Positions 4,863 to 57,703 are shown, counted from the first letter of the stretch. The stretch is 64,000 nt of DNA from Bacilli bacterium (GCA_028691515.1 JAQUZE010000005.1:14860-78859), one strand, 5' to 3'. Notes: generated by a model from the letters alone, not told the origin. Program-made: numbers and translations.

Positions 4863-6161
4863 ATGAAAAATGTAAATATAATAGGAGCTGGACTTGCAGG
4901 TTGTGAGGCGGCATATCAACTTGCTAAAAGAGGGATTAAAGTAAAACTTTTTGAAATGAGACCTAAGAAAAATACTGAAGTTCATAAGACTTCTATGTTT
5001 TCGGAATTAGTGTGTTCTAATAGTTTTAGAGCTATTTCTTTAGAAAATGCTGTAGGTTTAATTAAAGAAGAAATGAGAATCCTCGATTCATTAATTATGA
5101 AAGCCGCAAACTATGCAAAAATAGAAGCTGGTGGGGCTTTAGCTGTTGATAGAGATATGTTTTCGTCTTTTATTACTAATTGGATAATGAGTAATAATAA
5201 TATTGAAGTTATTAATGAAGAAATTACAGAAATTACAAATGGTCCAACAATTATTGCTACTGGACCATTAACTAGCGATAGTTTAGCAGAATCAATTAAA
5301 GGTTTTTGTGGAGAAGATTATTTGTATTTTTATGATGCTATAGCTCCTATTGTTTTAGAATCATCAATTGATAAGGAAATAGCATATTTAAAAAGTAGAT
5401 ATGATATAGGAGAAGCATCTTATTATAATTGCCCGATGAATAAGGATCAATATAATGAATTTTATGATGAATTAATTAAAGCAGAAAGAGTTATGCCAAA
5501 AGAATATGAGCTTAAAGTGTTTGAAGGATGTATGGCGATTGAAGACATTGCTGAAAGAGGAAGACAAACATTGCTGTTTGGACCTTTTAAACCTGTAGGC
5601 TTGACAAATCCCAAAACAGGTGATATTCCTTATGCTGTTGTGCAATTAAGAAAAGATAATTTAAGCGGAACTTTATATAATATTGTTGGTTTTCAAACTC
5701 ATTTAACTTGGCCAGAACAAAAAAGAATTATTCGTATGATACCAGGATTGGAAAAAGCACAAATTGTAAGATATGGAATTATGCACAGAAATACTTTTAT
5801 TAAATCACCTGAAATTTTAAATGTATTTTATCAAACTAAAAAAAGAGAGGATTTATTTTTTGCAGGACAAATTACTGGTGTTGAAGGATATATTGAATCG
5901 GCTTCATCTGGAATGGTTGCGGGTATTAATATGTATAGATTCTTAATGGGTTTAGATTTGATTGATTTTACATCATTGACAGCAATGGGTTCTCTTCCTA
6001 ATTACATATCTACAAAAACTGGTAATTTTCAACCAATGAATGTTAATTTTGGAATATTTGCACCAATTAAAGAAAAGTTGAAAAAGAAAGAGAGAAAAGT
6101 TTTTTATTTAAATAGAAGTTTAAAAAAGATTGAAGAGATTAAGGTGATAATTGATGACTAA
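4863..6161 (+). CDS. trmFO: Methylenetetrahydrofolate--tRNA-(uracil-5-)-methyltransferase TrmFO
   Basis: N-terminal FAD fold [12 protein letters not shown] and full-length TrmFO/Gid-like sequence. Followed by xerC, as in Bacillus. Confidence 0.93.
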
Positions 6162-14563: not shown

Positions 14564-16174
14564 ATGGAAACAGTTTTAGGAATTTTAGCATTTATTTTTA
14601 TATTAGGTTTAATAATTTCAATACACGAAGCAGGTCATTTCTTCTTTGCAAGTAGGGCGGGTGTGTTATGTCGTGAGTATGCAATTGGTATGGGGCCTGA
14701 AATTTTTAAAAAAAGAAAAGGTGAAACTCTGTATAAGTTGAAATTATTTCCTATTGGGGGATATTGTGCAATTGCTGGTGAAGAAGTTGAAGAAGATATG
14801 TTACAAGGCGTTGAAAAAGTGAAGTTAGGAATTAAAGGTGGAGAGATTACTGATATTTATTTAAATATTGATAATGAAAATGATGATAAAGTTTATAATT
14901 TAATTGAATATGATATTTTTGATTTAGAACAAACTGGCAAGCTTTTTATGAAAGTTGAGAAAGATGGAATTGTAAAAAAATATGCTGTAAATAGTCAAGC
15001 TTTTATTCATGATAAAAAATTACATATGCAAATAGCTCCATTTAATCGTACTTTAGGTTCTAAAAGTTTAGGTAAAAGAGCTTTAGTTATGTTTGGTGGC
15101 CCTATGTTTAATTTTATACTTGCTTTTTTAGTTTTTATAATAGTGGGATTATCTGTTGGATATATTGATTATAATAATAATCAACTATCGCAAGTTGAAA
15201 AAGATGGGCCTGCATATCGCGCAGGATTACAGGCTGATGATTATATTACTGAATTAAGTGTGGATGATTTCATTGTAGTTGTTGATAATGAAGGTAGCTG
15301 GGATGATATTGAGGATTTTTTCTTAGGATATATTGAGAGGGAATCTATAGAACCTGCAAGGATTACATATCTACGAGATGGAGTTGAACATATAAGTAGT
15401 ATTAATCCTATGTTTATTATTTATAATATGGGATTATACAGTGATGCTACCAAAGAAGATGTAATTATTAAAGATATTGATTATTCTGAAACTGAACTTA
15501 TGAATAATGTTGGTTTAAAGGTAAATGATAAAATTATTAAAATTAATAATAAGGACATTATTGCTTGGTCACAAGTTGCTAAGATAGCAAATGAATATAT
15601 TGGAAATAGTAATGTTGATGAGGAAAATATTTTGTCTTTTGTTGTTTTACGAGATGGTATTGAAAAGACAGTAGAAATTAAACCATATAGTAAGTCAGTG
15701 ATGGATAGTCAAAAAGATAATACAGGAAAGGTTATTCCTAATGCAGATGTTATTTTAGGAGTTACTCCAATTGTGAAGCATAGCTTTTTTGAATCTGTAT
15801 CTTTTAGTATAAATAAGACTGTTAATTCAACAACTTTAGTGTTTGATACCTTAGGGATGCTTTTTAAAAATCAAATAACTATTAGATCATTGTCTGGATT
15901 TGTTGGAATTGCAGATATGACTATTAAAATTACAGCTGGTGGAATAGTTAATTTATTAAGTTGGTTAGGATTATTAAGTGTAAATATTGGGCTAATGAAT
16001 TTATTGCCAATTCCTGCACTTGATGGAGGAAGATTAGTCTTTTTAGGTTATGAAGCAATTACAAGAAAAAAACCAAATCGAAAAGTAGAAACAGCATTAA
16101 TTTCAATTACTTTTATTTTATTAATGGGGTTGATAGTTTTTGTAACAATAAATGATATATTAAGATTGATATAG
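14564..16174 (+). CDS. rseP: RIP site-2 metalloprotease RseP/RasP with PDZ domains
   Basis: HEAGHF zinc motif, two PDZ-like segments, and C-terminal NLLPIPALDGG. Confidence 0.9.
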   Translation: METVLGILAFIFILGLIISIHEAGHFFFASRAGVLCREYAIGMGPEIFKKRKGETLYKLKLFPIGGYCAIAGEEVEEDMLQGVEKVKLGIKGGEITDIYLNIDNENDDKVYNLIEYDIFDLEQTGKLFMKVEKDGIVKKYAVNSQAFIHDKKLHMQIAPFNRTLGSKSLGKRALVMFGGPMFNFILAFLVFIIVGLSVGYIDYNNNQLSQVEKDGPAYRAGLQADDYITELSVDDFIVVVDNEGSWDDIEDFFLGYIERESIEPARITYLRDGVEHISSINPMFIIYNMGLYSDATKEDVIIKDIDYSETELMNNVGLKVNDKIIKINNKDIIAWSQVAKIANEYIGNSNVDEENILSFVVLRDGIEKTVEIKPYSKSVMDSQKDNTGKVIPNADVILGVTPIVKHSFFESVSFSINKTVNSTTLVFDTLGMLFKNQITIRSLSGFVGIADMTIKITAGGIVNLLSWLGLLSVNIGLMNLLPIPALDGGRLVFLGYEAITRKKPNRKVETALISITFILLMGLIVFVTINDILRLI

Positions 16175-24069: not shown

Positions 24070-27000
24070 ATGATTGCAGGCTCAAATAAAAAAATCAAAC
24101 TAGAAAAACATGCTAATTATCTTAAAGATATTTTTTCAACAAGCCCTTATATTGAATTAGGCAATATTGATTACAAAATTATGGAAAGAATCATCAATTT
24201 TGAAAAAATAGATATTGAAGAATTGGCTGATTTTAAATTACAAAATAGTAATGTTACTAATTTTAATATTGAAAATGATGAATTACAAAATATTATTCCG
24301 TATTTATTTTTATTAAATACAAACAAGAAAAATAAATCTTATAAAATTTTTTTAACATATGGATTGTTAACTTATAAAAATGAAGAAGGCAAGGAGGTTT
24401 TTTCGCCTATTATTTTAATTCCAGTTAATCTATTTTTTGAGGATGAAAAAGTATATATTCAAAAATTTAGTAGAGCAATTATTAATACAGTGTTAAATAA
24501 AGATTTAGAGAAAATACTTTCTGTTGAACGAAAAAGAATATTAAATATATCATCAGCTGATAATTTCAATAATCTTTATTCAATGGATAAATATATATTA
24601 TCAATGGCTTCAATTCCGGGTTTTGATGTTAAATTAGAAAATTATTTAACTGTTGGGGAAACTATTGAAAAAGATATTAAAATTGATCATAACAGATTTC
24701 CTATTACAAGAGCTCATGAAGCTCATTTAAATGATAAATATTATACTTCACATAATAATTTAGTTTTTCTTTTTTTAATGAATAAACGTCAAAGAGAAGC
24801 ATTACTTAATGCTGTTGAAAATAATAATTTTGTTATTGTCGGGCGCATGGGAACAGGGAAAACTACGACTCTTATAAATATATGTTTAGAAAAAATTAAA
24901 GATGGTAAAAGAGTATTATATGTTTCAAATAGAGATGAAACTTTAAATCAAGTAAGCAAATATTTTGAAGATAATAATTTGGAAAATTATATTGTTAATT
25001 TTTCTAATTCATTTTCGAGTTTTTACTATGGAGAAGCTGCTCCATATACTAAAAACCCTCCGATTATTAATAATAATATTCCTAATTTGTTAGAAAAATA
25101 TGAAGTTATTCAAGAATATGAAAAAATATTTTATTCAAAAATTTTAGATAATAGATATCTTGAGGTGCAAAATGAACTTAATTTCTTATCATTAAAGCCA
25201 ACAAAGGCTCTTAATATTGATGATCTTGACAAATTATATAAAGCTGATTTTTTGAAAGTAGTTAAAGGATTAGAAATAGTTGAACATAATAGAAAAACTG
25301 TTAAATGTATTTTTGAATCATTATGGAACGAAATCCCCTTAACAAATAATATAAAAAGCAGAAAAGAAATTTTAAATCTTATTTATGCTATCCATAGATC
25401 TTTTAAAATATTAGAATCTGAAAAAGAGGTTTTAGAAAAGGATTTTGGAATTGTTCAAGTATTAAATTTAGCTATGTTAAGAAATATTATTAGAACTATT
25501 AAACGTTTAACTATTGGTGATATTCCTCAAAGTTGGAAACAAAAAGGTTTTGCAAAATATTTATTAGCTGAAAAATTATATGCTGATTTAAAAAGAGAAA
25601 TAAACAATTTACAAGAAGCAGAATACCATTTAGATAATACTTATCATGATTTAAATAAAATTAAAATAAATAATGAAATTGTTAATGCTTTAGGAACATA
25701 TTATAGTGAAGATGATTTTGAGAGAATTGATAGTTTATTATTAAAAAGAAAAGATCTTGTATTATTAGCTAATAAAGCTTCATATAATAAAGAATTATTT
25801 GAAAATAGTATTACTGTAATTCAGAAATCACTTAATATGAAGTTAGTATTAAATGTAGAAGATATTAATTTTTTAATTGAATTTTCTCTTTTTTTGAAAA
25901 ATATTAATATTACTGAAACACAAGCTCAGGTCGCACTCAATAAAAATCATAATAATATTGTTCAAGAAATGACGCATATTCAAAATGAGTATATAGAAAG
26001 AATTAAAACAATTAAGAGATTTGAAAAAAATTATCCGAATGCTAATTTTAAACAATTAGATACTTGTTTGGAAATATTTAAAAGTGGATATTTTAATAGG
26101 GAAAATAAAAAACTTTTGTCTGCATTTATTTCTGATAAAAGAAAATTTAATAAACCTCTTTTTATTGAAGAAATAAGTAATGATATTCAAAACACAATTA
26201 GAAATATAGAGATAATAGAAGAATTAAAAAAAAGGTATTTTATTTTATCTAATTTAAATATTGAAGATTATGAAGAAGATTATAAAAATATTTCTTTAAT
26301 AATTGATTATTTAGAAAAAATCAAAGGAAGTAAATATATAAAAGGTGTTTTGCATTTATTTAAGAAAAATGAAAAATTAGGAAATACACGATTTATTAAA
26401 ATAGAAAATTCATTTACAAACTTTTTATCATCATATCGAGAATTTCAAAATATGAATTTGATATATACAAATTATGGTTTTACTTTAAATCAGCATTTTA
26501 TTGGTTATTATTATGAAATTATTAAAATTAATCAATATTTACAAAAATTATTTTCTTCAAATGATCGCTTAGCTTCTGTTGTTAATGATGAATCTTTAGA
26601 TTATATTTCATTTAAAACTTATTTAGATATTAGGGATTCTCAAAATTTAATTTGCTCCATAAATGAATCATTAAAAAATAATGATATCTATCGAGAAATA
26701 TATGGAGAAATGTATAACGAAGGATTAAGCAACATTAATGCAATTAGTCGAGTTATTCAAAATTTTGGTAATTATATTAAATGTTTTAATGAAGATAAGG
26801 ATGTTATCGAATCATTAAAAATTGATGTAAGTTTTAAGTTGGGGAACCATCTTAATCGTTGTTTAGAAGTTAGTGATGAGATTAACATTTTATTCCAAAA
26901 TTATAGTAAAATATTTAAATTTGGAGTTACAAAATTTTTGTATGCTGACTATAACGAGACTATTGAATATATGAGTAGTTTATTAAGGTCAGAAGATGAA

Positions 27001-28404
27001 TTAATAGCTTATCTTAATATTATTGAGGGATTAAAACCATTGTATGAGAATAATTTAAATAAATTAGTTGATTATATTGTTAATTTAAAAGAAAAAGACA
27101 CTTTAATTAATGATTTTAAGTATTCATATTATTTAAATTTACAAAATTTATTTTTAAGTAAATATGAAAACATTAACAATTATATAGAAATTCAAAAACA
27201 ACTTGAAGAAATTGTTGAGTTAGAAGAAGAAATTACTCAAAATAAAACTTTTAATATAGTTAATTACATAAGAAAATATAGTGGAAATAAATATAGTATT
27301 CATAATATTAAGGAATTAGATTATATTTCTTATTTAAAAAGAACAAAAAATATAAAAAATTTAGTTCTTACTCCAACATCAATTGTTAATCATTATTTAG
27401 ACATTAATGATTTTGATGTAGTTATTATTGATGATGCTCATTTATTGCATGCTAATGAGTATAACGAAGCAATTAAGGGAAAACAAGTTATAATTTGTGG
27501 TGAATTACAATTACAAAGTGTGGCTTCTAATAATTTAATTTGTAGAATGAGAAGTAATGCAATTATTAATATGAATTATAGATTTATTCCATCGCCTAAA
27601 AATCTTTTGAATAATATGGAAGGATCTAGAGGGGTTATTAAGAACACATTTAGTGCAAATAAAGGTATAAAAATAATTAATACTTCAATATTAGAGTTTA
27701 TTATTAATTTATATATTGAAAATATTAATTTAAAAGTAAATATATTTGTGAAAAGTTTTGATAATCAAAAGCAAATATATGAACAGTTGACAAATTTATT
27801 TGTTGAAAGAAAAATTTCTAAAAAACAAATAATTGATATTTTCACAAATAAATTGAATATAGTTGACTTAAGTCTTGGTTATCTATATCATTCGGATTAT
27901 AATATTATTTATTTAGAAGATTATTTTGATTTTTATTTTGAGCCTTTAATTCATAATATGATTGATTATATGTTGCAATGTACAGAAGAGTTAATTATTT
28001 ATGATTCAAGAAATTATTTAAAACAAATAAATTTTGCATTTGTTGATATTTTAAACAGAATAATTGAAAATAGTGACAAGAAAATATTTAATAATAAGAT
28101 AATTAATAAGAGTGTTCTTGGATTAGGAAAATTATTAATTAGTAAAGGATATAAAGTTTTTTCGGGACATGATGATTTTAGTCTGACTTTAGAAAAAGAT
28201 GATAAAATGTATGGTGTGTTATTGTTTTCTGATTATTTGAGAAACAATTATGAAATACTTAATCAATATAGAGATTATTATAGTGTGTTTAAAAAGAATA
28301 ATTTTAAAGTAATAATAGTTTGGGTTAATTCTGAAAATAATAATCTTGATAAAATTGCAAGCAAAATTATAAAGGAGATAAATGATGGGGAAAACAATAA
28401 CTAA
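24070..28404 (+). CDS. Giant (1444 aa) degenerate SF1 (Upf1/DNA2-like, DUF4011-type) helicase-like P-loop protein
   Basis: Walker A GRMGTGKT (nt 24841-24864). Walker B-like VVIIDDAH (from nt 27421) lies ~860 aa later. Degraded helicase motifs GELQLQ and NYRF follow. The N-terminal PIILIPV segment is DUF4011-like and the C-terminal region is endonuclease-like but degraded. Confidence 0.6.
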   Translation: MIAGSNKKIKLEKHANYLKDIFSTSPYIELGNIDYKIMERIINFEKIDIEELADFKLQNSNVTNFNIENDELQNIIPYLFLLNTNKKNKSYKIFLTYGLLTYKNEEGKEVFSPIILIPVNLFFEDEKVYIQKFSRAIINTVLNKDLEKILSVERKRILNISSADNFNNLYSMDKYILSMASIPGFDVKLENYLTVGETIEKDIKIDHNRFPITRAHEAHLNDKYYTSHNNLVFLFLMNKRQREALLNAVENNNFVIVGRMGTGKTTTLINICLEKIKDGKRVLYVSNRDETLNQVSKYFEDNNLENYIVNFSNSFSSFYYGEAAPYTKNPPIINNNIPNLLEKYEVIQEYEKIFYSKILDNRYLEVQNELNFLSLKPTKALNIDDLDKLYKADFLKVVKGLEIVEHNRKTVKCIFESLWNEIPLTNNIKSRKEILNLIYAIHRSFKILESEKEVLEKDFGIVQVLNLAMLRNIIRTIKRLTIGDIPQSWKQKGFAKYLLAEKLYADLKREINNLQEAEYHLDNTYHDLNKIKINNEIVNALGTYYSEDDFERIDSLLLKRKDLVLLANKASYNKELFENSITVIQKSLNMKLVLNVEDINFLIEFSLFLKNINITETQAQVALNKNHNNIVQEMTHIQNEYIERIKTIKRFEKNYPNANFKQLDTCLEIFKSGYFNRENKKLLSAFISDKRKFNKPLFIEEISNDIQNTIRNIEIIEELKKRYFILSNLNIEDYEEDYKNISLIIDYLEKIKGSKYIKGVLHLFKKNEKLGNTRFIKIENSFTNFLSSYREFQNMNLIYTNYGFTLNQHFIGYYYEIIKINQYLQKLFSSNDRLASVVNDESLDYISFKTYLDIRDSQNLICSINESLKNNDIYREIYGEMYNEGLSNINAISRVIQNFGNYIKCFNEDKDVIESLKIDVSFKLGNHLNRCLEVSDEINILFQNYSKIFKFGVTKFLYADYNETIEYMSSLLRSEDELIAYLNIIEGLKPLYENNLNKLVDYIVNLKEKDTLINDFKYSYYLNLQNLFLSKYENINNYIEIQKQLEEIVELEEEITQNKTFNIVNYIRKYSGNKYSIHNIKELDYISYLKRTKNIKNLVLTPTSIVNHYLDINDFDVVIIDDAHLLHANEYNEAIKGKQVIICGELQLQSVASNNLICRMRSNAIINMNYRFIPSPKNLLNNMEGSRGVIKNTFSANKGIKIINTSILEFIINLYIENINLKVNIFVKSFDNQKQIYEQLTNLFVERKISKKQIIDIFTNKLNIVDLSLGYLYHSDYNIIYLEDYFDFYFEPLIHNMIDYMLQCTEELIIYDSRNYLKQINFAFVDILNRIIENSDKKIFNNKIINKSVLGLGKLLISKGYKVFSGHDDFSLTLEKDDKMYGVLLFSDYLRNNYEILNQYRDYYSVFKKNNFKVIIVWVNSENNNLDKIASKIIKEINDGENNN

Positions 28405-37138: not shown

Positions 37139-38155
37139 ATGAAATTATTTAAAAAAATTTGGCTTCTAGCTTTGTTTTTTGTAACAGCTATATTTTTAGT
37201 AGGTTGTGGTTCAAGAACTTATAATGCAGAAGAAACTGGTATAAAAAACGATGGAGTTTTTAATTATAAAGTAATAGAAAATAAAGCAGAAATTATAATT
37301 GTTGATGAAACAACAGGAATTGAAAGAACAGAAATTGTTGACGATAATTTTATAATTATTGTAAATTTAGTTAATCAACAAAAAGATGTTGTTGTTCCTG
37401 ATACAATTGAAGGGCTTCCTGTAAGAGAAATTGCTGATTTTGCTTTTTATGAATATTATAAACTTATTGGTTTAATTACGATTCCAAGAAGTAAATTAGA
37501 GACTATAGAATTACCAAATACTTTGCAAAAGATTGGAAAATTTGCTTTTTATCAAGCAAGGAATTTAAAATCTGTTATATTGCCTGCAAGTTTAAAAGAA
37601 CTTTCAGAATCAGCTTTTGCAGGTGCTAATAAACTTACTTCATTTACTATTAATAGAACAGAAAGTGAATATAAAGAATATGCTAGTAATAGTTCGGATT
37701 TAGATCCAATAATTATTACAGGTGGACGAGATGCTTTTGTTGGAGATTTTTTCACTTTAGAGGCTACTGAGCCTGTAAGTTGGGAATCAAGTAATCCTGG
37801 AACAGCAGCAATAGATCCTGATTCAGGTAGAATTACAACTCGAAGTGTCGGTATTTATACAATTACTGCTAAATCAAGACAAACTAATAAAGTATCAACA
37901 GTTACAATGGAAGTAATTCAAGAAGATTTAACAAATAAATTAGCTTTTAAAGATAAAGCAATGGATAGATTAAATAAATTAGAGTCTTTAGTTTTAAATG
38001 TAAAAAGTCCAGAATTACTTGGAATGACTGAAAATTTTTTAAAACTTAATAGTAATGTAAAAATTTATGTTCCTGAAGAATCTGTTAGTTTTTATAAAAA
38101 TCATAAAATTTTTAAAATATATGCTGATTCAATTTTTCCCATTGTAGAAAATTAA
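37139..38155 (+). CDS. Surface lipoprotein with BspA-type leucine-rich repeats and a Big_2 (Ig-like) domain
   Basis: Signal peptide with lipobox LVGC. LRR_5-like units (IADFAFY..., IGKFAFYQARNLKSVILP..., LSESAFAGANKL). Big_2-like SWESSNPGTAAIDPDSGRITTRSVGIYTITA. Confidence 0.75.
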   Translation: MKLFKKIWLLALFFVTAIFLVGCGSRTYNAEETGIKNDGVFNYKVIENKAEIIIVDETTGIERTEIVDDNFIIIVNLVNQQKDVVVPDTIEGLPVREIADFAFYEYYKLIGLITIPRSKLETIELPNTLQKIGKFAFYQARNLKSVILPASLKELSESAFAGANKLTSFTINRTESEYKEYASNSSDLDPIIITGGRDAFVGDFFTLEATEPVSWESSNPGTAAIDPDSGRITTRSVGIYTITAKSRQTNKVSTVTMEVIQEDLTNKLAFKDKAMDRLNKLESLVLNVKSPELLGMTENFLKLNSNVKIYVPEESVSFYKNHKIFKIYADSIFPIVEN

Positions 38156-46010: not shown

Positions 46011-48098
46011 ATGCTAAATTTATTAAATGATAAGCAAAAAGAAGCGGTTTTAAGAACCGAAGGTCCCGTGATTATATATGCAGGGGCTGGTTCAGGAAAA
46101 ACAAGGACTTTAACTTATCGAATTGCTTACATGATCGAGTATATGAATATTCCTCCTTTTAATATACTTGCTATTACTTTTACAAATAAAGCAACTAATG
46201 AAATGAAATTCAGATTATCTGAAATGCTTGGGAATAAGTTAAAAGAACTTACAATTTCAACATTTCATTCTTTTTGCGTAAGAATATTGAGAAAAGAAAT
46301 AAAAAAATTAGGATATGAAAATAATTTTTTTATTTTGGATGATGAAGATCAGTTAAAAATTATTAATGAAATATACAAAGAAGAAAATTATAATAAATCT
46401 TTTATATCACCAAAACAAATGCAAAACAAATTAAATTATTATAAATGCCACGATATTAAAGCAGATACTGAAATGGAAATTTCAATTTTAAGGTCATATG
46501 AAAGAAAAACAAAAGAATATAATTCTTTAGATTTTCAAGATTTATTGATAAAAACAAGAGAATTATTTGCACATTTTCCCCGAGTTTTAGAAAAATATCA
46601 AGAAAAGTATAAATATATTTTAATTGATGAGTTTCAAGATACAGATAATATACAATATGATATTATCAAAATGTTAGCAAATAAATACAAAAATATATTT
46701 GTTGTTGGAGATGATGATCAAAGTATTTATAGTTTTAGAGGTACGAATTTTAAAAATATGCATTTTTTTAAAAAAGATTTTGAAGGTTGTTTTACAGTTT
46801 ATTTAACACAAAATTATCGTTCAACTCAAACTATTTTAGATGGTGCTAATAAATTAATCTCTCATAATGAAAATAGAGAGGCTAAAGAGCTTTTTTCTAA
46901 TATTGAAGGTAGTAAATACGATGTGACAATATTTCAAGCATACAACGAAAAAGAGGAAGTTGATTATGTTTTAGATGAAATTTCAACTTTAAAAAATAAA
47001 GGTTATAAACATAAAAATATTGCTATTTTATATAGAAATTCTTCAATTCTTAGAAATTATGAATTAGGAATGATTCACAGAAAGTTACCATATAAAATAT
47101 ATGGTGGAATTTCTTATTTGAGAAGAATGGAAATTAAAGACGCTATTGCATATTTAAAGCTATTGGTTGATGATAATGATTTTTTTAGCTTAAAAAGAAT
47201 TATTAATGTTCCTGTAAGGAATATTGGTTTAACTTCTGTTTATAAATTAGAGCTTATTAAAAGAGAAAAAGGATACAATATTTTTAACTTGATTGAAAAT
47301 TCTTTAGAAGTATTAACTGAGGCAAAGTATAAGAGTTTATTAGAATTAAAAAAAATAATAGTCAAATATAAATCAAAATTAGAACAGGATTCATTAGTAA
47401 ATATTTTTTCAAATTATTTAACTGAAATAGGATATTATGATTTTTTAAAAGGGATAGATGATAATATTGATAGGGTTGATAATTTAAATGAATTTAAATC
47501 TATTTTATATACTATGGATGAAGAAGATCTTGATTTAAATAATAAAGAGAAACTATTGAGATTTTTTGATGAAGCAACACTTTCAGATAATATTACAAGA
47601 AAAACAAATAATAATGGAATTTTATTATCAACAATTCATTCAGTAAAAGGCTTGGAATTTGATGTAGTGTTTCTAGTTGCTATGGAAGAAGGGATTTTTC
47701 CTAATCCTTATCGCTTTGTTACCGAAGAAGAAATTGAAGAAGAAAGAAGAGTAGCGTATGTTGCTGTTACTAGAGCTAAACAAAAATTGTTTTTAACAAA
47801 TTCAAAAACAAGATTATTATATGGCAATACTAAAAGAAATTCTGTATCTAGATTTTTGCTTGAATTTACAGGTGAAAATAATAATTCAAAAACAAGTACT
47901 TTTTTAGAGGCTGAGCCACATAAGTTTTTTGATGAGAGGGAAGAGTTGGTGTTGCAATCAGGAGATAAGGTTTTAAATCTTAAATATGGAGAAGGAACAG
48001 TACTTAAGATTGAAAAAGATATTGCTCAAATAGTATTTCCTAAAAGTGGAGTTATTACAAAATTTTTAATTGATTCTAAATTTTTAAAGAAAATATAA
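46011..48098 (+). CDS. pcrA: ATP-dependent DNA helicase PcrA/UvrD
   Basis: SF1A motifs AGAGSGKT, IDEFQDT, VGDDDQSIYSFRG, QNYRST, TIHSVKGLEFD and VAYVAVTRAK. Confidence 0.92.
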   Translation: MLNLLNDKQKEAVLRTEGPVIIYAGAGSGKTRTLTYRIAYMIEYMNIPPFNILAITFTNKATNEMKFRLSEMLGNKLKELTISTFHSFCVRILRKEIKKLGYENNFFILDDEDQLKIINEIYKEENYNKSFISPKQMQNKLNYYKCHDIKADTEMEISILRSYERKTKEYNSLDFQDLLIKTRELFAHFPRVLEKYQEKYKYILIDEFQDTDNIQYDIIKMLANKYKNIFVVGDDDQSIYSFRGTNFKNMHFFKKDFEGCFTVYLTQNYRSTQTILDGANKLISHNENREAKELFSNIEGSKYDVTIFQAYNEKEEVDYVLDEISTLKNKGYKHKNIAILYRNSSILRNYELGMIHRKLPYKIYGGISYLRRMEIKDAIAYLKLLVDDNDFFSLKRIINVPVRNIGLTSVYKLELIKREKGYNIFNLIENSLEVLTEAKYKSLLELKKIIVKYKSKLEQDSLVNIFSNYLTEIGYYDFLKGIDDNIDRVDNLNEFKSILYTMDEEDLDLNNKEKLLRFFDEATLSDNITRKTNNNGILLSTIHSVKGLEFDVVFLVAMEEGIFPNPYRFVTEEEIEEERRVAYVAVTRAKQKLFLTNSKTRLLYGNTKRNSVSRFLLEFTGENNNSKTSTFLEAEPHKFFDEREELVLQSGDKVLNLKYGEGTVLKIEKDIAQIVFPKSGVITKFLIDSKFLKKI

Positions 48099-48128
48099 GT
48101 ACATTTTTAAAAAATGTACTTTTTTTTA
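48098..48128 (+). terminator. Rho-independent terminator after pcrA
   Basis: AGTACATTTT/AAAATGTACT stem followed by a T8 run. Confidence 0.75.
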
Positions 48129-48186
48129 ACATTTACCAATAAAAGTAAGGTTTCAAACGTATAGATAGTGTATGGAGGATAATAAT

Positions 48187-49401
48187 ATGAAAAATATTAA
48201 AAAAATTGTTTTAGTTTTAGTTTTGGGAATTATTAGTTTGGTGTTTTTTGGTTGTACTGTAAATGAAACACAAAATGTATTTACTGATAGTAAAGATGTA
48301 ATTGCTTTTGAAGCTATGTCTGGTGTTGAGTTATTAGCTACTGGTGATGAAGAAATGCCATTGGTTGGACCTGTTAATGATTTAGTTGAAGAATCTGCAG
48401 TTGAAGAAGAAGTTGATGTTCTTAATAAATATTTAGGAATAATGGAAAAATATTTAAAAACTGATAATGGACTTAGTATTTCAGAGGAAATATCAGATAA
48501 GGAAGAATATGAAAAATTAGTTATTATTAGAACTGTAGATATGACAGGGGCAGAATTAGAATATTATTTATATTATAATGAAATAACTATTGAAGAAGAA
48601 ACAGATGAAGTAGAAGAAACAGATGAAGTAGAAGAGACTGATGAAGTAGAAGAGACTGATGAAGTAGAAGAGACTGATGAAGTAGAAGAGACTGATGAAG
48701 TAGAAGAAACAGATGAAGTAGAAGAAACAGATGAAGTAGAAGAGACTGATGAAGCAGAAGAAACAGATGAAGTAGAAGAGACTGATGAAGCAGAAGAGAC
48801 TGATGAAGTAGAAGAAGATGAAGAAAAAGAATATTTAATTGAAGGAATATTAATAGTTAATGAAATTGAATATACTTTAGAAGGATTTAGAGAAGTCGAA
48901 GAAGACGAAGAAACTTTAATGCTTATGGCTAAAGTTGATGAAAACAATTTTGTTAGAATACATTATGAAATTGAAGAAGACGAAAGAGTTTTTAATTATT
49001 TTGTAAAAGAAGACGGAATTGTTACTAGAACAAAAGTAAAAGTTGAAGAAGAAAATGACGGAATTAAAGTTCAACTTTCATTTGTTGAGGGAACAGCAAA
49101 AGGTAATTATAGTTTTAAAATGTCAACTGATGATGATGGTGTTGAAGTCATTAAAGTAAAATATACTCTTAGATTAGATAATGAAAAAACTGAAGAAGGT
49201 CATATTCATATTTATGTAACTATTAATGAAGAAACTGGAGAAGTTGTTTATGATTATAAATTATTTGATAATGGGAACAAACTAAAGAATGAGATGAAAA
49301 AACATAGAAGAGGACATCACGGAGAAGTTCCTGAAGATTTTCAAGGGGGAAATGATCAAGATAATGGATCTGGAAATACTAATGGTGGAAAAAGATTTTA
49401 A
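48187..49401 (+). CDS. Acidic repeat-containing lipoprotein, paralog of the downstream anti-sigma ectodomain
   Basis: Signal peptide with lipobox FFGC. A GGAGGA SD lies 7 nt before ATG 48187. Contains (ETDE[V/A]E)x12. Shares collinear motif blocks with the ORF at 49996-51270. Confidence 0.7.
   Translation: MKNIKKIVLVLVLGIISLVFFGCTVNETQNVFTDSKDVIAFEAMSGVELLATGDEEMPLVGPVNDLVEESAVEEEVDVLNKYLGIMEKYLKTDNGLSISEEISDKEEYEKLVIIRTVDMTGAELEYYLYYNEITIEEETDEVEETDEVEETDEVEETDEVEETDEVEETDEVEETDEVEETDEVEETDEAEETDEVEETDEAEETDEVEEDEEKEYLIEGILIVNEIEYTLEGFREVEEDEETLMLMAKVDENNFVRIHYEIEEDERVFNYFVKEDGIVTRTKVKVEEENDGIKVQLSFVEGTAKGNYSFKMSTDDDGVEVIKVKYTLRLDNEKTEEGHIHIYVTINEETGEVVYDYKLFDNGNKLKNEMKKHRRGHHGEVPEDFQGGNDQDNGSGNTNGGKRF
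48598..48813 (+). repeat. In-frame 18-nt tandem repeat, 12 copies, encoding ETDE(V/A)E
   Basis: Direct reading shows two unit types, GAAACAGATGAAGTAGAA and GAGACTGATGAAGTAGAA, in the order 2-4-2-1-1-2. Two units carry GTA>GCA. Confidence 0.95.
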
Positions 49402-49475
49402 TAAATCTAAATTTGCAAAAACTATTAATCACAAATAAATTTATGATATAATAACTCTGCTAAGGAGTTAGGAAT

Positions 49476-50003
49476 ATGTTAGATTATGATAGTTATGTAG
49501 ATGATTTAATTTTAAAAGATGAAGAAGCTTTTAGAATAATATATGATGATACTAAAAATGCCGTTTTTGGTATCATCATTTCTGTTGTAAAAGATAGGAA
49601 TCTTGCAGAAGATGTTATGCAAGATACATATATTAAAATGATTAAATCGATTAGAATATATAAAAGAAATGGTAAGTTTATTAATTGGCTTTTAACAATC
49701 GCAAAGAATCAAGCTATTGATTATTATCGTAAACGAAATAAAGAAGTTCTACTTGATTATAATGATGAGACTAATGAGCCTTTATTAAAAGATGATAATA
49801 ATTTTACTTTTTCATTAGAAACTAACAGATTGTTAGATTTGCTTAGTGATATAGAAAGAGAAATAGTTATTTTAAAGATTGTTAATGATTTTAAATTTAG
49901 AGAAATTGCTGAGTTTGTGGGTAAGCCTTTAGGTACAGTATTGTGGATATATAATAAAAGTATTAAAAAAATGCAAGAAGCAGAAGGGAGTAATAATGAT
50001 TAA
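49476..50003 (+). CDS. ECF-type sigma-70 family RNA polymerase sigma factor
   Basis: Region 2 (DVMQDTYIKMIKS...NWLLTIAKNQAIDYYRKR) and region 4 HTH (EREIVILKIVNDFKFREIAEFVGKPLGTV). Confidence 0.85.
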   Translation: MLDYDSYVDDLILKDEEAFRIIYDDTKNAVFGIIISVVKDRNLAEDVMQDTYIKMIKSIRIYKRNGKFINWLLTIAKNQAIDYYRKRNKEVLLDYNDETNEPLLKDDNNFTFSLETNRLLDLLSDIEREIVILKIVNDFKFREIAEFVGKPLGTVLWIYNKSIKKMQEAEGSNND

Positions 50004-51270
50004 AAGAAAAGAATTAAAAGATAAGATTAAAAATGATATTTATCAGAGTACTCCTGATGTTTTTTCAAAGATTAAATTAGATCAGATTGCTGTTGACCCA
50101 TATCAGGAAAAAGAAATAAATAGAAAAAAATTTAAAATTAGTTATAAGCATGCTTTTTCTTCATTGATTACTTTAGTTTTGGTTTTTGTGGTAGTGGTAT
50201 TGATAGCTAAACCAAGACAGGAAATAATTCCTGAACCAGTATATAATTATTCGCCTCTAGATTCAAGCGAAGAGGTCTATGCTGTATCAAGTGTAATAGC
50301 TACAAATTTATTTTTAGCTTCCTTTTCGGATAATGATAATCTCTCTTTAAATGAAAATGTTAATGAAATGTTGATTGATTCACAATATGATAATTTAAAT
50401 AAAGTTTTAAATTCAATTGAGTCTTTAATAAATAACAAACAAAAAAATAGTATTGTTCAATTAAAATCAGATGATAATAATTATGAGTTTTTACTTGAAA
50501 TTAGCTCTGTTGATTTAATGATGTTTGAAGATACTTATTATTTATATTATAATGTTGTTGAAGAAGATTTATCATTGCTTAAATTTAAAGATGATGATAA
50601 TGGTAGAGGAAAAGACGATGACGAAGAAGATGATGAAGATTATGATAAAGAACATGAATATGAAGAAGAAAAAGATGATATAACAAAAGATATTAAAGAT
50701 CTAGATGATACAATTAATGGAGTTGTTAAATTAAGAATAGAAGGAAAAATAATATATAAAAACAATCCAAATTTTAATTATATTGTTGAAGGAATGATTT
50801 TAGATAATAAAAATATCGAAAAAATAGTTTTTGATGTGTATGAAGAAAATAATTTAAATAATTATATAAGAATTATTCAATCAGAAAACAAAGATAAACA
50901 GATATTTATTTTTGAAGAGTTTAGTGATGCTATTTTAATTTCTAAAAACTATATGGTTTTAAAAGTTGATGAAGATAATGATTATTCAGCTGATTTAATA
51001 GTTGTTGATTTAATTAGTGATTTAATGTCTAAATATGAAATTTCAAAAGATTTTGATGATAACGAAATGGAAATAGAGTATTTAATATTATTTAGTGGAC
51101 AGATGGAAGAAGGCGAGATTGAAGTAAATATTATAAAGGTTGGAAATCAATACCAATATAATTATAAGACTAAGAATGAAAAAGGGAATAGTGATCATAA
51201 GGAAAAGAGATTTAGATTTAGTGGTGAGTCTCATTCCGGGGAAGGACCTTTAGTTTTCACTTCTGTTTAG
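49996..51270 (+). CDS. Putative single-pass anti-sigma factor with a ~340-aa extracytoplasmic domain
   Basis: Overlaps the sigma gene by 8 nt. ~55-aa cytoplasmic N-terminus, one TM (LITLVLVFVVVVLIA), and an acidic-insert ectodomain. No HxxxCxxC zinc motif seen. Confidence 0.65.
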   Translation: MIKRKELKDKIKNDIYQSTPDVFSKIKLDQIAVDPYQEKEINRKKFKISYKHAFSSLITLVLVFVVVVLIAKPRQEIIPEPVYNYSPLDSSEEVYAVSSVIATNLFLASFSDNDNLSLNENVNEMLIDSQYDNLNKVLNSIESLINNKQKNSIVQLKSDDNNYEFLLEISSVDLMMFEDTYYLYYNVVEEDLSLLKFKDDDNGRGKDDDEEDDEDYDKEHEYEEEKDDITKDIKDLDDTINGVVKLRIEGKIIYKNNPNFNYIVEGMILDNKNIEKIVFDVYEENNLNNYIRIIQSENKDKQIFIFEEFSDAILISKNYMVLKVDEDNDYSADLIVVDLISDLMSKYEISKDFDDNEMEIEYLILFSGQMEEGEIEVNIIKVGNQYQYNYKTKNEKGNSDHKEKRFRFSGESHSGEGPLVFTSV

Positions 51271-51280
51271 AAAAAAATAT

Positions 51281-51311
51281 AAAGAAGCTAATAAATTAGC
51301 TTCTTTTTTTA
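51281..51311 (+). terminator. Rho-independent terminator after the anti-sigma gene
   Basis: AAAGAAGCTA/TAGCTTCTTT 10-bp stem, 6-nt loop, T-run. Confidence 0.8.
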
Positions 51312-51352: not shown

Positions 51353-53361
<2,009 letters not shown>

Positions 53362-56818: not shown

Positions 56819-57703
56819 ATGAACTATATACCACAAATTTTAGCATTACCAAACCACATAGATATTTTTGGATTAAAAATTACTTTTTATGCGATTTGTA
56901 TTATTATTGGAATGTTTTCAGCTTATTATTATGGGCTTAGAATTGCTAAAAAAATTGGCATAAATGAAGATGACTTATTTTGGGGATTTATTATTGGTGT
57001 TGTAGTTGGTGTTTTGGGCGCAAGAATATACTATGTTATTTTTTCTTGGGCTGATTATAAAGATAATATAATTAAAGTGTTAGCTATTAATGAAGGGGGA
57101 CTTGCAATTCACGGAGCTTTAATAGCTGCGGGTATTTTTGCAGTTATTTATGCTAGAATTAAAAAGCTTGATTTGTTAAAAATAATTGAAGTTCTAGCTC
57201 CTGGATTTTTAATAGGGCAAACAGCAGGAAGATGGGGGAATTTTTTTAATCAAGAGGCTAATGGTGGCGAAGTTACAAGAGGGTTTTTAGAAAAAATTCA
57301 TATTCCTGAATTTATTATTAATAATATGTATTTTCGAGATAAAGTGACTGGTATTGTGGGTTATTTTCATCCAACATTTTTCTATGAATTTTTATGGAAT
57401 ATGTCAGGATTACTTGCTATTATTCTTATTAGAAAATTGTGGAAAAAATATTGGATGGGGGATGCCGGTATATTTTACTTAATATGGTATGGTATTGGAA
57501 GATTCTTTATTGAAGGATTAAGAACTGATCCACTTCCAGTAAATATTTTTGGATTGGAATTATTACAAGCTCAAGTTATTTCTGTAATTATGGTTTTTGT
57601 TGGTATAGCATTATTAGTATTAAGAAGAATTTTTAAATATAAACCAATTTCTTTTATGGAAATTATTGAGGAAAATAAGGTTGAAGTTACATTAAAGGAG
57701 TAA
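56819..57703 (+). CDS. lgt: Prolipoprotein diacylglyceryl transferase
   Basis: Lgt signatures YAICIIIG, GARIYYV, GGLAIHGA, GRWGNFFNQE and GRFFIEGLRTD. Confidence 0.93.
   Translation: MNYIPQILALPNHIDIFGLKITFYAICIIIGMFSAYYYGLRIAKKIGINEDDLFWGFIIGVVVGVLGARIYYVIFSWADYKDNIIKVLAINEGGLAIHGALIAAGIFAVIYARIKKLDLLKIIEVLAPGFLIGQTAGRWGNFFNQEANGGEVTRGFLEKIHIPEFIINNMYFRDKVTGIVGYFHPTFFYEFLWNMSGLLAIILIRKLWKKYWMGDAGIFYLIWYGIGRFFIEGLRTDPLPVNIFGLELLQAQVISVIMVFVGIALLVLRRIFKYKPISFMEIIEENKVEVTLKE

Follow-up and report, generated by a model that had tools for sequence, protein, structure and literature searches.

A lipoprotein and a putative anti-sigma factor share an undescribed outer domain in a conserved three-gene ECF sigma module

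Pairs of extracytoplasmic function (ECF) sigma factors and anti-sigma factors form the third large class of bacterial signalling systems, and for most of their groups neither the cue nor the sensor domain is known. In the closest described systems, sigmaE-RseA-RseB (E. coli rpoE), sigmaW-RsiW and sigmaV-RsiV, an ECF sigma gene is followed by the gene of a co-translated single-pass membrane partner, under an autoregulated promoter of ECF type. We analysed a unit with a similar layout in a 64-kb stretch of DNA labelled Bacilli bacterium (GCA_028691515.1 JAQUZE010000005.1:14860-78859; the window, taken at its full length), where the plus strand carries three genes between pcrA (46011-48098) and ligA (51373-53361), encoding a lipoprotein, an ECF sigma factor and a putative anti-sigma factor. 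Like the sigmaE-RseA-RseB system, it has a further extracytoplasmic protein in the operon and an RseP-type site-2 protease in the genome. However, the extra protein is here a lipoprotein that is encoded first and is paralogous to the sensor, whereas RseB is LolA-like and unrelated to RseA. Unlike sigmaE and other ECF systems that work by regulated intramembrane proteolysis, the partner has a one-helix N-terminal segment of about 50 residues without any match to ASD, zf-HC2, RskA or DUF4179, and an ectodomain of unmatched fold. The three genes, with their scores against the hidden Markov model (HMM) of the shared domain family where these apply, are:

48187-49401, plus strand: lipoprotein gene, 404 amino acids, family HMM E=1e-95
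49476-50003, plus strand: ECF sigma gene, 175 amino acids
49996-51270, plus strand: putative anti-sigma gene, 424 amino acids, family HMM E=9e-68; its start overlaps the stop of the sigma gene by 8 nt

Sensors related to what they control are known from other classes: the outer domains of RsgI (Clostridium thermocellum sigmaI) are carbohydrate-binding or glycoside hydrolase modules, and that of BlaR1 has a penicillin-binding fold. The sigmaI-RsgI and BlaR1/MecR1 systems thus share with this locus a sensor outer domain homologous to the controlled product; here, in contrast, the sigma factor is of the ECF class, the homolog is a neighbouring one-domain lipoprotein, and the domains themselves have no homology to those systems, although the partner in one related locus (L014, see below) does carry an RsgI_M-type domain. 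CpxP, in a two-component system, is a pathway-induced envelope protein that damps its own sensor, as is proposed here for the lipoprotein, but it bears no paralogous relation to the sensor domain. Literature searches for the present architecture found nothing specific. As proposed, the circuit works like known ECF modules, and its new part is an undescribed domain family. The account that we put forward, tentatively, is that 48136-51306 forms one insulated, autoregulated ECF module whose induced lipoprotein binds the cue of the sensor and thereby damps the response.

The original prediction, made from the sequence, held that the lipoprotein is a paralog of the anti-sigma ectodomain, one copy being anchored through a lipobox FFGC and the other through a transmembrane (TM) helix. 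Both open reading frames (ORFs) have the coordinates that it gave them and both anchors are as it described, the TM helix spanning residues ~50-70 of the anti-sigma protein. BLASTP with compositional adjustment aligned the two proteins at E=1e-7 (38% identity over 69 amino acids, in the block before the insert). Both are biased in composition and the genome has a GC content of ~26% (also that of the window), so the resemblance might have reflected nothing but a low-GC bias towards D, E, K, I and N. We therefore compared the halves of the two proteins separately by Smith-Waterman alignment, with both inserts removed and one partner shuffled 500 times: the N-terminal blocks matched each other at z=11.7 and the C-terminal ones at z=5.9, none of the 500 shuffles reached the real score, and mismatched blocks (N against C) gave z values of only 0.9 and 1.7. 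Consistently, hhalign of the two ortholog families returned 313 collinear columns (probability 98.7%, E=2.3e-16), and the same gene pair in 'Tenericutes bacterium MO-XQ' (CP017948), a genome of 31% GC, still matched at E=3.5e-43 (36% identity over 344 amino acids). These results leave an artefact of composition virtually no room; the lipoprotein and the anti-sigma ectodomain are true paralogs, and the claim withstood the profile alignment and the shuffling control that had been proposed for it. The window proteins are only ~22% identical, and a search for DNA-level identity between the two genes found short AT-rich or acidic-codon matches only, which makes the duplication an old one.

The N terminus of the lipoprotein (MKNIKKIVLVLVLGIISLVFFGC) is a signal peptide with the lipobox FFGC, whose cysteine is residue 23 counted from 48187; LFGC, LFSC or LIGC takes its place in orthologs. 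An alternative ATG at 48172 would give a 409-amino-acid version, but 48187 is most likely the start and 48172 unlikely, since a GGAGGA ribosome-binding site occupies 48174-48179 and the orthologs all begin with MKNIKK. The exact protein, in its 404- or 409-amino-acid form, is missing from a collection of 5.8 billion proteins in which the adjacent anti-sigma protein is present at 100% identity. As is usual for bacterial lipoproteins, the lipobox Cys at +1 is accompanied by a genomic prolipoprotein diacylglyceryl transferase, and lipidation is predicted from the sequence; lipobox proteins can be lipidated in this host, since the window encodes the enzyme:

56819-57703, plus strand: Lgt, prolipoprotein diacylglyceryl transferase, PF01790 at 7.5e-58

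We searched exhaustively with an HMM of the merged alignment and retrieved 1082 cluster representatives (clusters at 50% identity) at E<=1e-3, 752 of them at E<=1e-10. The single family HMM finds lipoprotein and anti-sigma architectures alike: among the best 150 matches, ~100 have a lipobox at residues 13-29 and ~41 are of the anti-sigma type, with an N-terminal segment of 45-60 amino acids (consensus MKxKxIKxxI...P....KIDL) followed by a TM helix. A further word-indexed protein search, based on the alignment of 147 sequences, brought in hardly anything new. No model for the shared domain emerged when the two window proteins were scanned against Pfam and NCBIfam and 42 anti-sigma-type members against Pfam; the family profile found nothing relevant among PDB sequences, its lone match being a de novo NTF2 protein (E=0.026). 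The domain family is newly defined and is in no database by name. Two members stand out in architecture: a 579-residue anti-sigma-type protein (L010, 5001-6740) in which the C-terminal beta part (HMM positions 153-357) is doubled, and a 550-residue lipoprotein (L011, 2759-4411) with two cytochrome-b5-like modules of the heme/steroid-binding type between lipobox and shared domain, which may hint at what type of ligand is bound.

AlphaFold2 (AF2) models of both window proteins were built with 147 sequences, came out confident and have the same order of elements: a membrane anchor, two helices of ~20 residues, three strands, a loop and twelve long antiparallel strands. In the lipoprotein (mean predicted local distance difference test score, pLDDT, 80; predicted template modelling score, pTM, 0.73) the first element is the signal peptide with its lipobox and the loop is acidic; in the anti-sigma protein (pLDDT 82, pTM 0.72) a cytoplasmic N-terminal helix (4-18) and the TM helix precede the ectodomain. 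Foldseek searches of both models against the PDB returned no match at E<=0.001, and the best TM-scores (~0.2-0.4) were to generic up-and-down beta proteins (VDAC, OspA, FABP, avidin and nitrobindin); on these values we refrained from naming the fold as that of LolA, a lipocalin or OspA. An RseB/MucB identity of the lipoprotein found no support either, as it had no Pfam match and no LolA or RseB structure was among the top 50 Foldseek matches listed. The near-invariant positions of the shared domain are Ser, Asn, Gly, Gly and Tyr; because these do not suggest a catalytic site, we infer that it is probably a binding domain.

The order lipoprotein, ECF sigma factor and paralogous membrane protein recurs in nine independent loci with differing flanking genes, so that the survey of the duplicated arrangement that had been suggested came out in favour of its conservation. 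These loci are the window, L001 (=L006), L002 (=L003, L005), L004, L007, L008, L010, L011 and L016 (=L017); L016 is a syntenic ortholog of the window unit at ~60% identity, and a scan of a genome collection, limited by its pattern step, contributed only 4 loci. In all other loci the sigma and anti-sigma genes overlap or are separated by 0-2 nt. The elements that would control transcription of the unit in the window are:

48099-48127, plus strand: terminator-like hairpin (GTACATTTTT/AAAAATGTAC) followed by T8, read from the sequence, directly past the pcrA stop
48136-48163, plus strand: candidate ECF-type promoter, CCAATA, 16 nt, CGTATA
49444-49452, plus strand: extended -10 of housekeeping type, TGATATAAT, in the 74-nt spacer between lipoprotein and sigma genes
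51281-51306, plus strand: intrinsic terminator closing the operon, 11-bp stem and T run

The hallmark of ECF promoters is an invariant CGT in the -10 element at fixed spacing. Upstream of the lipoprotein genes we found the consensus CCAA(T/C)A, exactly 16 nt, CGT(A/T/C)TA, ~25-50 nt before the start codon and once per locus, in eight of the nine three-gene loci (window, L001, L002, L004, L007, L008, L010 and L016), within regions that are otherwise unalignable between loci. The ninth, L011, has CGTATA only, plus a weak -35. Additional matches to a relaxed pattern ([CT]GT) in L010 and L011 were treated as probable chance. The motif occurs once as an exact match in the window, and a scan allowing one mismatch expects 0.9 chance matches. 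A conserved -35, a CGT -10, fixed spacing and a position upstream of a sigma-bearing operon are the features of an autoregulated ECF promoter, and CCAATA-N16-CGTATA is most likely read by the module's own sigma factor. Loci of other composition vary: in L014, CCAACA-N16-CGTTAT precedes the sigma gene; an orphan lipoprotein gene (L012) has CCAACA-N16-TGTTTA at 4951-4978, which would allow control in trans; and a second orphan (L013) is without the motif.

A housekeeping-type TGnTAnAAT lies at the same place in the lipoprotein-sigma spacer of the same eight loci. No terminator lies in the spacer of the window, and transcription begun at the ECF-type promoter should therefore continue into the sigma gene; such read-through would be positive autoregulation. 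The hairpin past pcrA, absent from the output of the terminator scan because its stem has fewer than three G-C pairs, is predicted to insulate the module from upstream transcription. Contigs carrying the lipoprotein gene were present in three metatranscriptomes and contigs of the sigma and anti-sigma genes in none, a weak fit to a higher level of lipoprotein mRNA; a further RNA-labelled run (X25) had flat, DNA-like coverage and was excluded from the transcript evidence.

The sigma protein matches Sigma70_r2 (5.7e-15) and Sigma70_r4_2 (4.6e-6) in Pfam and scores 68.3 bits with TIGR02937, the general ECF model, whose cut-off is 42.9; with regions sigma2 and sigma4 only, it belongs to the ECF (group 4) sigma-70 family. 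It did not reach the cut-off of any equivalog model for a named ECF subgroup (SigW, SigV, SigM, SigX, SigY, BldN and others), its best scores, both below cut-off, being 84 bits for PRK12513 (206) and 80 bits for SigY (194). The main text of the 2021 ECF re-classification (PMC7826278) mentions neither Tenericutes nor lipoproteins. Within the sigma ORF, 67 nt past its start, we observed one further element:

49543-49579, plus strand: hairpin of 17 bp with a 3-nt loop, -22.6 kcal/mol, z=-5.5, followed by a T-rich stretch

It is retained in L016, the 60% ortholog, where a Gly-to-Ser codon change turns a G-U pair into A-U, and is not evident in loci more distant than L016; it might act in attenuation or in stability, or might just result from the YDDT...GIII codons.

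By its context the partner protein is a putative membrane anti-sigma factor: it crosses the membrane once, from an N terminus on the inner side to a large C-terminal domain on the outer side, and its gene adjoins the sigma gene. No class I anti-sigma domain was matched in Pfam at E<=1 for the window protein or at E<=0.1 for the 42 family members, and AF2 places one confident helix (4-18) ahead of the TM helix, against the four helices of the class I domain. The Pfam scan likewise found no DUF4179/RsiV-type domain (PF13786), and a profile of the N-terminal 48 amino acids retrieved nothing from PDB sequences at E<=10. The label 'anti-sigma' thus rests on gene context, since the N-terminal segment matches no known anti-sigma domain. 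As for regulated intramembrane proteolysis, a protease of the required type is encoded in the window, outside the three-gene unit, and a site-1 protease was not identified:

14564-16174, plus strand: RseP/RasP-type site-2 protease, Peptidase_M50 at 1.9e-61 and PDZ_6 at 5e-9

Judged from the N-terminal sequences of neighbouring ORFs, the protease alone having been scanned, this gene apparently lies within the usual uppS-cdsA-dxr-rseP-proS cluster.

In the circuit that we propose, the housekeeping promoter in the spacer would provide a basal level of the sigma factor and of its translationally coupled, single-pass partner, whose short N-terminal helix would hold the sigma factor. A cue at the large ectodomain would lead to removal of the partner, most likely by regulated intramembrane proteolysis with the RseP-type protease of the window performing the last step, and the freed sigma factor would read the CCAATA-N16-CGTATA promoter. 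What it makes first, and probably in the largest amount, would then be a free, lipid-anchored copy of the sensor ectodomain, while read-through would supply more sigma and anti-sigma factor. Because its fold is that of the sensor, the lipoprotein most likely binds the same extracellular cue; by handling the cue and titrating it away from the sensor, it would provide a built-in negative feedback. An induced, free copy of a sensor domain that feeds back on the sensor is a testable hypothesis. It agrees in part with the original prediction, in which the lipoprotein acts as co-sensor, decoy or competitor: the conserved link of the lipoprotein to the sigma/anti-sigma pair in nine loci, together with the ECF-type promoter, fits a decoy or competitor, but a function of the lipoprotein in its own right is indicated as well.

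An obligate co-sensor, by which we mean a lipoprotein that captures the cue or presents it to the anti-sigma ectodomain, is required for induction and gives positive feedback, appears improbable to us. The lipoprotein does stand first behind the ECF-type promoter and would rise together with sigma; yet the housekeeping promoter lies after the lipoprotein gene, so that an uninduced cell would make the sensor and little co-sensor, and one sigma/anti-sigma pair (L009) has no lipoprotein gene nearby at all.

The latter locus also counts against the feedback circuit itself, as do several other observations. The fold, with nothing at E<=1e-3 in Foldseek, gives no clue to a ligand; neither Pfam nor the PDB holds a known anti-sigma domain that the N-terminal segment of the partner would match; and the transcript evidence consists of assembled contigs only. 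Lipoprotein genes also occur as orphans without an adjacent sigma gene, in L012 and in L013 (4001-5125; record AFNU02000014, a code that we take to be that of Haloplasma contractile). In L014 (177-3327), a sigma gene is followed first by a partner that shares the N-terminal motif yet has RsgI_M as its ectodomain, and next by a family lipoprotein. The lipoprotein is thus kept beside a sigma factor whose partner has a non-paralogous ectodomain, and its role must therefore go beyond titrating a paralogous sensor. Together with the orphans, this locus makes the lipoprotein more than a mimic of such a sensor. Some data indicate that it has a function of its own, namely its retention in L014, the orphans, and its greater number and conservation than the anti-sigma copy.

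To follow the history of the two copies, we built a bootstrapped neighbour-joining tree of 18 ectodomains over 289 HMM-aligned columns, a simple method in which rate artefacts are possible and which in this respect also tempers our account. Bootstrap support for a single clade of all anti-sigma ectodomains was only 1%; a core group of them reached 82%, and those of L001 and L007 joined the lipoproteins encoded in their own two genomes at 86%. Mean identity across genomes was 34% for the lipoproteins versus 25% for the anti-sigma copies. The tree thus points to more than one derivation of the sensor copy from the lipoprotein. Because the whole domain was repeatedly retained and, it seems, re-acquired in the sensor, both domains would share a binding property.

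The 86% grouping of one lineage's anti-sigma ectodomain with lipoproteins would also keep interfaces compatible, as expected if the lipoprotein acted like RseB and heterodimerised with the anti-sigma ectodomain through an ancestral homodimer interface, shielding or exposing the site of the first protease cut. Regulation would then pass from protein to protein, with no shared ligand, between paralogs of one fold that stand side by side on the same membrane face and whose genes should be co-transcribed as in the textbook operon rpoE-rseABC. We consider this unlikely in view of the non-paralogous ectodomain of L014, the orphan lipoproteins, the low identity of the window proteins (~22%) and the lack of homology to RseB or LolA.

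The feedback circuit that we favour likewise has to be weighed against a lipoprotein that is purely an effector, the chief product with which the regulon protects the cell or remodels its surface (e.g. a polyanionic coat), whose domain was re-used in the sensor without any cross-talk. The predominance of lipoproteins over anti-sigma forms (~100 to 41 in the top 150), their better conservation, and their occurrence as orphans and beside a different anti-sigma protein all suit such a role, as do an expansion of the acidic loop specific to the lipoprotein and in-frame tandem repeats reminiscent of the size-variable surface lipoproteins of mollicutes. But a whole domain of ~300 amino acids is kept in the sensors of many lineages, and was seemingly copied into them more than once. 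Such retention and copying are difficult to account for if the sensor does not need the same binding property; we regard a pure effector, too, as not very likely.

The acidic loops concern two features of the window:

48594-48815, plus strand: tandem repeat with an 18-nt unit, 12.3 copies, 93% matches, coding for 12 x ETDE(V/A)E
50560-50700, plus strand: acidic insert of the anti-sigma protein with helix 219-234, from the AF2 model and the loop survey

The repeat noted originally in the lipoprotein is exact at the protein level, its twelve ETDE(V/A)E units making up 72 amino acids in the loop between strands 3 and 4. The two acidic inserts do occupy the same position, as had been claimed, with the conserved YYN strand on one side and the IEG strand on the other. 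Loop lengths across 147 aligned family members put this coincidence into perspective: the lipoprotein loop (n=100) has a median of 42 amino acids, reaches 101 and is 44% D/E, versus a median of 16 amino acids for the anti-sigma type (n=44), in which the loop is in general neither long nor strongly acidic and attains 57-74 amino acids only in the window's own clade. Many anti-sigma forms have an acidic C-terminal tail instead of an acidic loop, and the lipoprotein loops of other lineages contain different repeats, such as PVTEE or ETDEVDE. Since most lipoproteins have a long acidic loop and few anti-sigma proteins do, the two inserts look independent; probably a permissive loop that was acidic to begin with grew separately in each. 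AF2 models the lipoprotein insert with low confidence throughout and that of the anti-sigma protein as ~30 low-confidence residues (~189-218) followed by the confident helix. The lipoprotein loop is best explained as a recurrently expanded, disordered polyanionic appendage.

Disordered regions of RsgI and PBP1 in B. subtilis are described as extracytoplasmic probes of peptidoglycan gaps (PMC9732909). As described there, they resemble the present case in that an anti-sigma factor and another envelope protein of its pathway each bear a disordered segment; here, in contrast, the loops are strongly acidic and lie inside a folded domain, and the relatives are wall-less. The near-perfect in-frame tandem repeat (12 x 18 nt) also recalls the Vlp/Vsa lipoproteins of mollicutes, but it is inserted in a loop of a conserved folded domain, and no phase-variation switch was seen. 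In the DNA for the anti-sigma insert we noted a repeat with a 12-nt period (50612-50657); a contig of the public run X25 has a 12-nt deletion at 50612, so the length of this insert is polymorphic. Short-read assemblies of every run examined stop at the 18-nt array, and copy-number variation is thus not readable from them.

The source of the module was judged from its relatives. Proteins identical or nearly identical to the third ORF are labelled as metagenome-assembled genomes of 'Bacilli bacterium', and those at 62-64% identity carry the label Acholeplasmataceae; the nearest named relatives of the module are Acholeplasmataceae and Mycoplasmatota, and its metagenome sources are landfill, sludge, manure and digester. 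The host is predicted to be an Acholeplasma-like bacterium (Mycoplasmatota), from a group known to be without a cell wall. For carriers of this kind the usual cues of envelope stress, peptidoglycan and lipopolysaccharide, are not applicable, and the ligand of the shared domain would reveal what wall-less cells monitor at their surface. The significance of the locus lies in placing more than 1000 clusters (at 50% identity) of an unnamed domain, with its two membrane-anchored forms, in a three-gene circuit that is conserved and has a predicted promoter. In a broader and rather doubtful extension, the shared domain of two helices and roughly 15 strands would be a new ligand-binding fold that underlies the main surface-stress sensing of Acholeplasma-like wall-less bacteria; in a 'sensor-mimic' circuit, the prime target of the sigma factor would be a lipid-anchored duplicate of its sensor domain that buffers the inducer, and the sensor would be renewed repeatedly from the lipoprotein by duplication or gene conversion.

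Elsewhere in the window, GC is low at 24-32 kb and 38-40 kb. The former stretch includes an ORF of 1444 amino acids (24070-28404) that matches DEAD/ResIII helicase, Schlafen-type helicase and STAND-NTPase-like models and lies in DNA of only 20-22% GC, below that of the flanking sequence; this region may be a defence or mobile island. A second lipobox protein of the window (37139-38155; MKLFKKIWLLALFFVTAIFLVGC) carries BspA-type leucine-rich repeats (LRR_5).

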